DNA of 64,000 nucleotides, taken from Verrucomicrobiales bacterium (GTDB lineage Bacteria > Verrucomicrobiota > Verrucomicrobiia > Limisphaerales > JAYPEY01). The stretch spans positions 44,611 through 108,610 of the forward strand of contig JAYPEY010000006.1 in assembly GCA_038126035.1 (NCBI GenBank). Reading direction: 5' to 3'. The position numbers and the translations under genes were made by a program. Under the pieces are notes generated by a model, which was given only the letters and a program-made list of their open reading frames with translations, was not told the origin of the DNA and did no database searches. Positions 2,707 to 5,390 of this stretch are shown in pieces. The stretch's first letter is position 1; each line of letters opens with the position of its first letter.

Positions 2707-4299
<1,593 letters not shown>

Positions 4300-4381
4300 G
4301 GCTTCGGACTTTCGTTTGTCTGTTTTTCTGTCTGTTTGTTGTTCCCGCGCCGCCGTGTCCGACCGGCATTGTGGGCGCAAC

Positions 4382-4415
4382 AAAAAACCCCACTGCCGGG
4401 CGGACAGTGGGGTTT
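4382..4415 (-). terminator. intrinsic terminator between the leader ORF and leuA (attenuator terminator)
   Basis: Minus-strand RNA reads AAACCCCACUG-UCCGCCCGG-CAGUGGGGUUUUUUG. The stem is GC-rich and is followed by six U. Confidence 0.75.
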
Positions 4416-4434
4416 GGAAAAGCTCAGGAATCGG

Positions 4435-4509
4435 CTAGAACCCAACTGCCGCGCCGCCAATAAGCAGCGCGCTGGTAAGGAGCAGGTTCAACTTTCCGAT
4501 CCGTTTCAC
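4435..4509 (-). CDS. candidate leucine leader peptide (24 aa, GTG start): MKRIGKLNLLLTSALLIGGAAVGF
   Basis: Short ORF 33 nt after the upstream stop and 22 nt before the terminator. Four Leu codons (UUG, CUG, CUC, CUU) fall in a 5-codon window, with two more at codons 15-16. No ATG or clear SD is present. Confidence 0.45.
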   Translation of the reverse strand: MKRIGKLNLLLTSALLIGGAAVGF

Positions 4510-4541
4510 GGTCGTAGGAGTAGTGCCTTTGTATCGGTCGG

Positions 4542-5390
4542 TCAATGGGTTTTTTGAGGAACGGCGTCCATCGCGCAGCGGAAACCCACGTCGTTGCAGG
4601 TGGTGTTTAATGGCTCGAAGCCCTGGTGATAGGTCGTGCCGTGGCGCGCGCCGTAGCCGTGCGCGCCGCCGCGGATGATGCCGCTGCGATGCCAGTTCTC
4701 CTGCGGCTCGAAGGGGATCCTGCTGACATGGATATCGCTGACCCATTCCCAGGCGTTGCCGCACATGTCGTGCACACCGTAGGGACTGGCGCCCTCGGGG
4801 AATTGGCCGACCGCCATCTTCCTGCCGCCTGTGCGACAGACGGCGTCGTCTGAAACGGAGACGCCTTCCTCGGTGATGTAGCCGTCGGGTCGGAGATTGC
4901 ATTTGGTGCGGTCGTATTCGTTGCCCCAGGGGTAGGTCCGCCCGTCGGTTCCGCGCGCCGCCTTCTCCCATTCCGCTGCGGAGGGCAGTCGTTTGCCCGC
5001 CCACTTTGCGTAGGCCTCGGCCTCGTGTTTCAGAATGTGCGTCGCCGGAAAGTCGTCCTCGCCTGCGGGGTATTCGTGGCTCGGTTTGAATTCCTTGTAT
5101 TCGCGATTGGTGACTTCGAAGCGCTCGATGTGGAACGCGGACACGAACACGCGTTTCAAGGGAGGCACGTCGAAGTCGGCCTTGGGATCGTCGCTGCCCA
5201 TGAGGAAGTCGCCGGCGGGAATGAAGACCATGCCCTCCGGCGGCGGCGCGTATTGGCGTTGTTCTTGGAGGACCTGGTCGCATCGAATCCAGAGCCAACG
5301 CCCGCTTGCTGCCGTCGCCGTGATCAACAGGATCGCGACCGCCATGAACAGGCGGGGATGGCGGACTGCTTGTCGGCGCAGGCGGTTCAT
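4542..5390 (-). CDS. formylglycine-generating enzyme (SUMF1/FGE-sulfatase) family protein, N-terminal membrane anchor
   Basis: 'GMVFIPAGDFLMGSDD', 'YPWGNE' and 'GNAWEWVSD' motifs. ATG at 5390 (alternative TTG at 5429). TM segment 'LFMAVAILLITATAA'. Confidence 0.8.
   Translation of the reverse strand: MNRLRRQAVRHPRLFMAVAILLITATAASGRWLWIRCDQVLQEQRQYAPPPEGMVFIPAGDFLMGSDDPKADFDVPPLKRVFVSAFHIERFEVTNREYKEFKPSHEYPAGEDDFPATHILKHEAEAYAKWAGKRLPSAAEWEKAARGTDGRTYPWGNEYDRTKCNLRPDGYITEEGVSVSDDAVCRTGGRKMAVGQFPEGASPYGVHDMCGNAWEWVSDIHVSRIPFEPQENWHRSGIIRGGAHGYGARHGTTYHQGFEPLNTTCNDVGFRCAMDAVPQKTH

Follow-up and report, generated by a model that had tools for sequence, protein, structure and literature searches.

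A candidate leucine-responsive, ribosome-mediated transcription attenuator upstream of leuA in Verrucomicrobiota

Introduction

Is the short, leucine-rich open reading frame (ORF) that lies in front of leuA, the gene for 2-isopropylmalate synthase, in a Verrucomicrobiales bacterium part of a switch that couples expression of this gene to the supply of leucine? The question is raised by a 64,000-nucleotide stretch of contig JAYPEY010000006.1, referred to here as the window, in which leuA occupies positions 4299-2707 of the minus strand. A first-pass annotation, made from the letters of the sequence, had proposed that the region ahead of the gene encodes a leader peptide together with overlapping antiterminator and terminator structures. 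We have followed this proposal through the leuA loci of related genomes. The unit in question runs from 4555 to 4382 on the minus strand and encompasses a promoter, a leader ORF, a set of alternative pairing regions and a terminator. It very probably acts as a leucine-responsive, ribosome-mediated transcription attenuator controlling leuA. The sequence elements, their geometry and conservation, the coding signature of the ORF and the covariation within its helices are all observed directly, and these provide the basis for the argument that follows.

The proposed attenuator unit in the window

The gene proposed to be regulated is well defined, as its product contains the Pfam HMGL-like and LeuA_dimer domains and scores above cut-off with both of the NCBIfam equivalogs NF002086 and TIGR00973. 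Its leader is preceded, also on the minus strand, by an FGE-sulfatase gene with its 3' end at 4542, and the context is in this respect just as it was originally described.

The leader ORF (4509-4435, minus strand) is composed of a GTG start codon (4509-4507), 23 further codons and a TAG stop codon (4437-4435), and encodes the peptide MKRIGKLNLLLTSALLIGGAAVGF. As the first-pass annotation had recognized, its leucine codons are clustered. There are six of them, with codons 7 (TTG), 9 (CTG), 10 (CTC) and 11 (CTT) making up a first cluster at 4491-4477 and codons 15 (CTG) and 16 (CTT) a second at 4467-4462. Taken by itself, a window ORF with six leucines in 24 codons and no Shine-Dalgarno (SD) sequence is weak evidence. 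The leader frame also stays open for 287 codons further upstream (ORF 4435-5298, minus strand), where it crosses the FGE-sulfatase gene out of frame; this long open frame is an artefact of GC-rich DNA, and a naive ORF caller merges or misses the 24-codon leader within it.

The ORF is followed by an intrinsic terminator, AAACCCCACTGTC-CGCCC-GGCAGTGGGGTTT, with a 13-bp stem (4415-4403 paired with 4397-4385), a 5-nt loop and a T6 tract ending at 4382. Its predicted free energy is around -21 to -22 kcal/mol (-21.9). The presence of a terminator after the ORF is therefore borne out, although the stem begins 19 nt beyond the stop codon and not 22 nt as first reported. From the end of the T-run, a further 82 nt lead to the start of leuA.

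Four regions of the minus strand can be assigned to alternative pairings. Region 1 (4497-4482; GGAAAGTTGAACCTGC, consensus TTGAACCTGCGACTGCTG) carries the first leucine codons and represents the anti-antiterminator strand; when the window leader is folded to its minimum free energy, this strand is paired to region 2 and the spacer. Region 2 (4450-4435; GGCAGTTGGGTTCTAG, consensus GGCAGTCGGGGTTTAA) spans the last five sense codons together with the stop codon and supplies the antiterminator with its 5' strand. Region 3 (4415-4403; AAACCCCACTGTC, consensus AAACCCCACTGCC), defined from folds and pair counts, serves in two helices, as 5' arm in the terminator and as 3' strand in the antiterminator. 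Region 4 (4397-4382; GGCAGTGGGGTTT plus T6), identified by stem prediction and pair counts, provides the terminator 3' arm and the U-tract. Nested within the 1:2 pairing is a further hairpin, P1 (4470-4451; GCGCTGC-TTATTG-GCGGCGC), which had also been noted within the ORF at the outset and whose stem, 4470-4464 with 4457-4451, is present in the minimum-free-energy fold. The arrangement includes a duplication, in that the last sense codons, GGCAGTTGGGTT (4450-4439), nearly repeat the terminator 3' arm, GGCAGTGGGGTT, such that region 2 resembles region 4. The earlier suggestion that this near copy could pair with the terminator 5' arm holds in constrained folds, in which a 2:3 antiterminator of 13 columns with a one-base bulge is formed.

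Conservation of the element and its linkage to leuA

Relatives were collected through a LeuA search, which gave 80 Verrucomicrobiota loci with 68-95% LeuA identity. These are labelled mostly as Limisphaerales, Pedosphaera and Verrucomicrobiales, and nearly all come from metagenome-assembled genomes. A MAFFT alignment (A1) of 59 leaders was converted into a covariance model, R1, which was then searched against the window and all 80 leuA loci, a total of 612 kb. In the window R1 returns a single full-length match at 4382-4518 on the minus strand (100.7 bits), and in the relatives one full-length match in each of 63 of the 80 loci (58-123 bits), including five loci that were absent from the seed alignment; a few further loci contain weaker variants. 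The 64 strong matches, the window included, together with three weak variants make up the set of 67 leaders used below for the ORF, whereas helix counts on the model-based alignment refer to 64 leaders.

Every R1 match is positioned directly upstream of leuA, and neither a second copy nor one independent of leuA was found in the 612 kb of the window and leuA-centred loci. The peptide was likewise not encountered away from leu genes in the same search space, which removes one of the outcomes that the first-pass annotation had named as contrary to its proposal. A broader metagenome scan with a degenerate pattern of P1, region 2 and region 3 gave no R1 match among the 80 loci listed, the pattern being too loose. 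Over both strands of its 64 kb, the window contains a single instance of the architecture TTGAC-N18-TA-start codon-short ORF-terminator.

The genes on the other side of the element are far less constant. Among 57 loci the upstream neighbour belongs to 47 different families and is on the opposite strand in 27 cases, and an FGE gene is found in this position in the closest relative only. Since the upstream neighbours vary while the element stays in front of leuA, the element belongs to leuA and not to the upstream gene. This bears upon the most mundane account of the locus, in which the hairpin would simply terminate the FGE-sulfatase gene and the ORF would be a chance frame in GC-rich DNA. The hairpin does lie on the same strand as the FGE gene, only 128 nt downstream of its stop codon, and the leader frame does remain open far upstream through that gene, as is common in GC-rich DNA. 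However, the terminator, ORF and promoter are all conserved in front of leuA in 63 other loci, in only one of which an FGE gene is present, and about half of the loci have a divergent upstream neighbour. We consider this explanation almost certainly wrong, and a role of the hairpin as the FGE gene terminator is ruled out by its conservation before leuA alongside changing upstream neighbours.

The leader open reading frame

The alignment of leuA upstream regions that had been proposed as a check upholds the leucine-rich ORF. With each ORF called from its stop codon and its distance to the promoter, an in-frame start and stop are present in 67/67 leaders, the start being ATG in 36, GTG in 31 and TTG in none, and the stop TGA in 25, TAA in 23 and TAG in 19. 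The start-to-stop length is 18-25 codons throughout and 22-25 codons in 63 of the 67. The other two frames are interrupted by stop codons in 62 and 32 of the leaders, respectively, and the gaps that MAFFT places within the ORF of the DNA alignment are multiples of three.

The peptides contain on average 6.8 leucines, compared with 2.1 in composition-preserving shuffles and 1.6 and 0.4 in the other two frames. Leucine is found at aligned peptide columns 7, 9, 10 and 11 in 46, 53, 50 and 60 of the 67 leaders, encoded by five different leucine codons, and at columns 16, 17 and 18 in 65, 61 and 38. There is considerable synonymous turnover beneath this conservation. One leucine column is made up of CTG (17), CTT (8), CTC (8), CTA (7) and TTG (6), and another of CTT (21), CTG (21), CTA (9), CTC (6) and TTG (3). 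That leucine is kept at seven aligned columns despite such turnover indicates selection on the identity of the leucine codons rather than on the nucleotides. The leader ORF evolves like a translated ORF, and its translation may be presumed from this pattern.

The choice of leucine codons in the 67 leaders (CTG 50%, CTT 17%, TTG 13%, CTA 10%, CTC 8%) differs from that in the leuA genes of the same loci, where CTC, TTG and CTG predominate and CTA accounts for 2%. This bias may reflect the constraints of the stems, selection for slowly decoded codons, or both.

It could be argued that the peptide is incidental, and that the element is an RNA riboregulator whose signal is a small molecule, a protein or an uncharged tRNA, the ORF being a side effect of stems rich in CUG. 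CUGCUG and CAGCAG, which read as leucine in one frame, are indeed abundant in region 1, P1 and region 2, and there is a precedent in the actinobacterial leuA LEU element, which has been proposed to be bound by a protein and in which mutation of the leucine codons has non-classical effects (PMC1262725). Against this, all 67 leaders preserve both start and stop codons and an unbroken frame, with indels in multiples of three, and leucine is kept through synonymous nucleotide changes that include first-position switches between TTG and CTG. The structural evidence described in the next section points in the same direction, as the conserved columns are in helices and leave no conserved unpaired nucleotides from which a ligand pocket might be built, and no T-box or riboswitch model matches the element. 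A riboregulator of this kind is very unlikely.

Terminator and alternative helices

The terminator is the most readily recognized part of the element, and most of the related loci harbor a near-identical version of it, (A)AACCCCACTGCC-loop-GGCGGTGGGGTTTTT, shortly before leuA. When RNAalifold was applied to the MAFFT alignment it returned the terminator only, because the alternative helices compete with one another; these were subsequently defined from per-sequence constrained folds and their pairs counted explicitly. In the MAFFT alignment 95% of the cells are paired in the terminator, 85% in the antiterminator and 67-86% in the 1:2 helix plus P1, against 40-51% in slid controls. In the model-based alignment the antiterminator, which had been left out of the model, is 86% paired, compared with 26-51% when slid. 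Considered separately in the relatives, the cells of the 1:2 helix are 72-87% paired and those of P1 80-87%. Over the helices as a whole, slid controls give 26-52%.

Compensatory changes are found in all of these helices. They include the terminator pair 141-164 (AU in 40 leaders, GC in 15), the antiterminator pair 93-143 (AU 28, GU 15, GC 14) and the 1:2 pair 44-96 (GC 16, AU 15, GU 11), and in P1 both sides change at all four outer pairs. The columns of region 3 co-vary with both of their alternative partners, with C at 143 accompanied by G at 93 in 14 of 14 cases. The covariation check thus returns compensatory changes in both alternative helices, and the duplicated segment is itself kept in the orthologous leaders, in the form GGCRGTxGGGGTT. 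Together with the kept ORF, these two observations support the attenuator architecture as it was first read.

In 49 of the 64 leaders the minimum-free-energy fold lengthens the 1:2 hairpin, with the region of the start codon pairing with the spacer that follows the stop codon. This lengthened basal stem corresponds to columns 6-24 with 99-126 of alignment A3 and, in the window, to GGAAAG (4497-4492) with CTTTTCC (4422-4416). Its sequences differ strongly between loci, and the stem lies outside both the model and the column-by-column counts. Just ahead of region 3 a TTT(T/C) is conserved. The basal stem, the anti-antiterminator that the first leucine cluster makes with the antiterminator strand, and the -10 box described below are additions to the features listed in the first-pass annotation.

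Promoter and predicted start of the leader transcript

The first-pass annotation had reasoned that a promoter for the leader would have to lie inside the 3' end of the upstream gene, and had pointed to a TTGACC spanning its stop codon. Such a promoter can now be outlined on the minus strand from conserved spacing. The -35 box, TTGACC (4545-4540), overlaps the FGE stop codon TGA (4544-4542), and a -10-like hexamer, TACTCC (4522-4517), follows 17 nt past it and ends 7 nt before the GTG. Adjoining the -35 box is an A6 tract (4555-4550) that resembles an UP element and may serve as a promoter enhancer, A being present at positions -10 to -5 from TTGAC in 34-52 of the 67 leaders. TTGAC is found in all 67 leaders, as TTGCC in two of them. 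The distance from its first T to the start codon is 35-39 nt in 61 of the 67, and T at +23 and A at +24 from the same point are seen in 55 and 54, respectively.

In 61 of the 67 leaders the -10 hexamer ends 7-10 nt ahead of the start codon, or 7-8 nt by a narrower estimate, from which transcription would be expected to begin on the start codon or within approximately 2 nt of it. The leader is therefore probably translated from a leaderless mRNA, to judge from the promoter geometry, and a leaderless transcript needs no SD sequence. Inspection of the leader alignments by eye shows none. Comparison with the relatives thus resolves the two reservations that had been expressed, one about the missing ATG and SD and the other about the promoter. 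ATG and GTG are both used in the family, in 36 and 31 leaders, the start codon is at a conserved distance from TTGAC, and the geometry suggests a leaderless transcript.

Proposed mechanism

From these patterns we infer the transcription start, the translation of the ORF, the stalling of the ribosome and the response to leucine, in the following manner. Transcription would proceed from the dedicated promoter (A-tract, TTGACC and TA-type -10), probably starting on the GTG or no more than 2 nt from it, and the 24-codon leader ORF would be translated on a leaderless mRNA while RNA polymerase continues along the template. With charged tRNA-Leu in abundance, the ribosome would reach the TAG and cover region 2 (4450-4435), leaving region 3 (4415-4403) to pair with region 4 (4397-4385), and the resultant hairpin and U-run would terminate transcription before leuA. 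When charged tRNA-Leu is scarce, the ribosome would stall on the leucine codons (4491-4477 and 4467-4462), in or beside region 1. Region 1 would then be masked by the stalled ribosome, and region 2 would be free to pair with region 3 to form the antiterminator, permitting read-through into leuA. Were no ribosome to engage the transcript, regions 1 and 2 would pair into a long hairpin capped by P1, and the terminator would again be formed.

Several features of the leaders fit this scheme. In the window region 2 ends with the stop codon, and the terminator stem starts 19 nt further on; in the relatives this gap is 11-25 nt, with a median of 20. A terminating ribosome is thus placed to cover region 2 and to leave region 3 free. 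When the window RNA is masked as if a ribosome had stalled at leucine codons 7, 9, 10, 15 or 16 (five of the six), the antiterminator is formed, and when it is masked at the stop codon only the terminator remains. The leader combines an ORF rich in the amino acid made by its own pathway, a terminator, a mutually exclusive antiterminator, a 1:2 helix that bears the relevant codons and an appropriately placed stop codon, all of which are architectural features of this class of attenuator.

The distance between the element and its gene is also informative. From the end of the T-run to the start of leuA there are between 19 and 221 nt, with a median of 47, and in 19 of 59 loci there are 30 nt or fewer. 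In these latter cases there is no space for a second promoter, and leuA would have to be expressed by read-through only, as befits a terminator with a regulatory role. The same spacing weighs against the idea that the ORF is an independent gene for a small hydrophobic peptide that has its own promoter and terminator, acts in trans and neighbors leuA by chance. The unit does possess its own promoter and terminator, the peptide is conserved, hydrophobic and 18-25 amino acids in length, and accounts of peTrpL show that leader peptides can have trans functions. Yet the terminator, being 30 nt or fewer from leuA in a third of the loci, necessarily gates leuA, and in the loci searched the unit is always directly before this gene, whatever lies upstream. 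Furthermore, the conserved residues are almost exclusively the leucines and a C-terminal AAVG, the codons of which make up region 2, while the remainder vary freely; and a plain small gene would give the antiterminator helix no role. As a complete explanation a small peptide gene is extremely unlikely, but the peptide may have a trans role alongside attenuation.

Some observations weigh against leucine-responsive attenuation or limit the force of the argument for it. The antiterminator in the window is weaker than the terminator, at about -15.7 versus -21.9 kcal/mol, and a ribosome-free fold of the window that includes region 3 favors P1 plus the antiterminator over the 1:2 helix, meaning that the model relies on the order of folding during transcription, as in other attenuators. 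The antiterminator is mostly conserved rather than co-varying, as both sides change in only 4-5 of its 13 pairs, and its number of double-change pairs is not above that of shuffled controls (195/500 and 56/500 shuffles reach the count); the shuffles, moreover, overstate significance because the sequences are related. Coding and RNA-structure constraints overlap in this stretch, and neither is cleanly separable from the other. With regard to the promoter, the window has a weak -10 (TACTCC, with C as the last base) and a GTG start codon, and a simple sigma-70 scan of the window did not call the leader promoter. The model would also require transcription-translation coupling in this phylum. The case for attenuation is built from sequence elements, conservation and covariation, and in the actinobacterial leuA and ilvB leaders the effects of mutating the candidate codons were not those of classical attenuation (PMC1262725), a misfit which means that architecture alone is not proof of attenuation.

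Other leucine-rich leaders in the Verrucomicrobiota

The R1 element is not the only leucine-rich leader among the loci collected, the more distant Verrucomicrobiota having different ones. It is absent from three loci of Chthoniobacterales or Spartobacteria type (L075, L078 and L079), each of which has a leucine-rich ORF of its own ahead of leuA. In L079 this ORF, MRRNGQLLGVELLLLGSGAPKLLLLS, extends from -180 to -99 relative to the leuA start, and no clear terminator was seen. In L078 it is MRYASLQLRLPDLLLLGSGAPNHSLLPIR, from -231 to -141, with a 21-bp perfect hairpin and TTT after the ORF, and in L075 it is MVKAARTSLLALRLGLLPSRLTLLSL, from -159 to -78. A different leader with a run of leucines is found in L080 (1085-1235, plus strand), where an ORF starting with ATG at 1121 encodes MFQVGNLLLLVAVL, including four consecutive leucine codons, and is followed by its own terminator. 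It follows the same logic as the R1 element but is unrelated to it in sequence, scoring weakly against the model (27 bits), and it has a TTGAC 36 nt upstream of the ATG. This leader precedes an operon of ilvH, encoding the small subunit of acetolactate synthase, ilvC and leuA, with ORFs at 1267-1776 and 1799-2887 and leuA at 2998.

The leucine-rich leaders of the Chthoniobacterales-type loci and the ilvH-ilvC-leuA case suggest that control of leucine genes by leader peptides may be phylum-wide. We lean slightly towards a view in which the leuA leader is truly leaderless, its attenuator would rest upon leaderless initiation with tight coupling, and leucine attenuation is general across the phylum.

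Some loci depart from the R1 consensus. In the L068 variant the ORF MKLLLLNLNLLIALLIIGRRVG lies from -291 to -222 relative to the leuA start, and the terminator, AAACCCACCGTC...GGTGGGTTTTTT, approximately 140 nt before leuA. In L073 and L077, both of them GC-rich, the ORFs are of the ...GLLLRLLGLAPFAVGPVGRA type and the terminators of the GGCCCACCGCGG type. In a marine clade (L013, L020, L030, L037 and L044) the 60 nt before leuA are without the leader ORF and regions 1-3, and all that is left is a terminator loop and 3' arm, AAGCTGGCGGTG...TTTTTTTGG, in what looks like a recent decay of the attenuator. Three further loci (L033, L043 and L014) share a common divergent upstream neighbor and have kept the full element.

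Neighboring genes and source records

Downstream of leuA, the window contains two overlapping long ORFs. That at 38-1723 on the plus strand (561 amino acids) has Pfam matches to secretin-like and CarboxypepD_reg domains, all of which are sub-threshold, and that at 728-1795 on the minus strand (355 amino acids) has no Pfam match.

The labels of some of the source records seem out of keeping with their contents. One locus with the full verrucomicrobial element (L034) is titled Candidatus Baltobacteraceae, another (L074) is titled Saccharibacteria, and several lake metagenome-assembled genomes carry the name Akkermansia muciniphila. The probable cause is faulty binning or labelling in the records from which these loci come.

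Significance

The leuA leader represents a conserved cis-regulatory element that lends itself readily to testing, in a phylum on whose gene regulation the literature searched has little to say. It constitutes a new RNA family, absent from Rfam 15, for which a seed alignment of 64 sequences is now to hand. If it functions as proposed, both intrinsic termination and the coupling of transcription to translation must be at work in Verrucomicrobiota, and it suggests that short regulatory ORFs in this group use leaderless mRNAs, a point that bears on the annotation of small ORFs and promoters in mostly uncultured genomes. The element also supplies a promoter consensus for the group, namely an A-tract, TTGAC, 17 nt and TA. 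The understanding of attenuation itself is unchanged, and the finding will be unsurprising to the specialist, while being of use for annotation and for studies of regulation.

Comparison with known systems

The leaders, T-boxes and riboswitches of Rfam 15 provide no family that matches window positions 4200-4700, even with permissive filters and E-values up to 10. A handful of sub-threshold matches (NsiR1, ar14, anti-hemB and the rnk leader) score 16-17 bits against gathering thresholds of 39-59 and are chance matches driven by the terminator. At the gathering threshold, 20 related loci contain one tRNA and nothing else. Literature searches on Verrucomicrobia or Akkermansia brought up no relevant work on attenuation or leader peptides, one broad survey from 2010 lying outside this scope, and the earlier remark that no description of leader-peptide attenuation was known from the Planctomycetes-Verrucomicrobia-Chlamydiae (PVC) bacteria is in keeping with this, as no prior description was found in the literature searched.

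The closest parallel in terms of logic is the enterobacterial leu leader (leuL, RF00512). Both have an ORF with leucine codons in region 1, a four-region system of 1:2, 2:3 and 3:4 pairing and a terminator before leuA. There is, however, no homology of sequence or structure between them, and cmscan with the Rfam Leu_leader model gave no match to the element at E-values up to 10. The likeness between IGKLNLLL in the window peptide and IGLLLLN in that of E. coli, to which the first-pass annotation drew attention, is accordingly not one of homology. The leucine codons are arranged in two clusters here, L-x-LLL and LL(L), as opposed to four consecutive leucines in the enterobacterial peptide. Here the stop codon is inside region 2 and there is probably no 5' untranslated region or SD sequence, whereas E. 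coli leuL has an SD sequence. The two also differ in what they control. In the window and most relatives the verrucomicrobial leader is directly before leuA, with no other leu genes identified among the downstream ORFs examined, whereas the E. coli element controls leuABCD.

In its genetic setting the element is reminiscent of the actinobacterial leu leaders, namely the leu leader peptide of Corynebacterium (MNRANLLLLRRGGSQA) and the LEU element, in which a short ORF with a run of leucines likewise precedes a stand-alone leuA (PMC5784534; PMC1262725). The ilvB leader peptide of Corynebacterium diphtheriae, moreover, is encoded on a leaderless transcript (PMC5784534). The actinobacterial LEU element is described as a pseudoknot with a base stem that pairs the leucine codons with the SD sequence of leuA; it has no obvious terminator, and its mechanism is disputed (PMC1262725). 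In the verrucomicrobial leader the leucine codons pair instead with the 3' end of the ORF, there is a strong terminator with a classical antiterminator, and the ribosome-binding site of leuA is outside the helices.

Attenuation that is mediated by the ribosome at leucine codons is also encountered elsewhere beyond the Proteobacteria, in the leu/phe leader of Lactococcus, which is Rfam family RF01743, and in the ilv-leu leader of Staphylococcus aureus. The latter encodes a leucine-rich attenuator peptide (PMC5794164). These leaders belong to another phylum, are unrelated in sequence to the element described here, as judged by the lack of an Rfam match, and control whole ilv-leu operons.

With respect to its putative leaderless start, the leader can be compared with those of the mycobacteria, whose leaderless mRNAs have AUG or GUG at their start and often carry short ORFs with a regulatory role (PMC4633059; 10.1101/834739). 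The mycobacterial polycysteine upstream ORFs similarly place a regulatory short ORF at a 5'-terminal AUG or GUG, and the usage of 36 ATG, 31 GTG and no TTG among the present leaders fits with such an arrangement. It is cysteine, however, that is sensed by the mycobacterial ORFs, and the leaderless state of the verrucomicrobial leader is deduced from its promoter geometry. Taken as proposed, the leuA leader is a textbook leu attenuator in function, one that stands outside Leu_leader and all other Rfam families.

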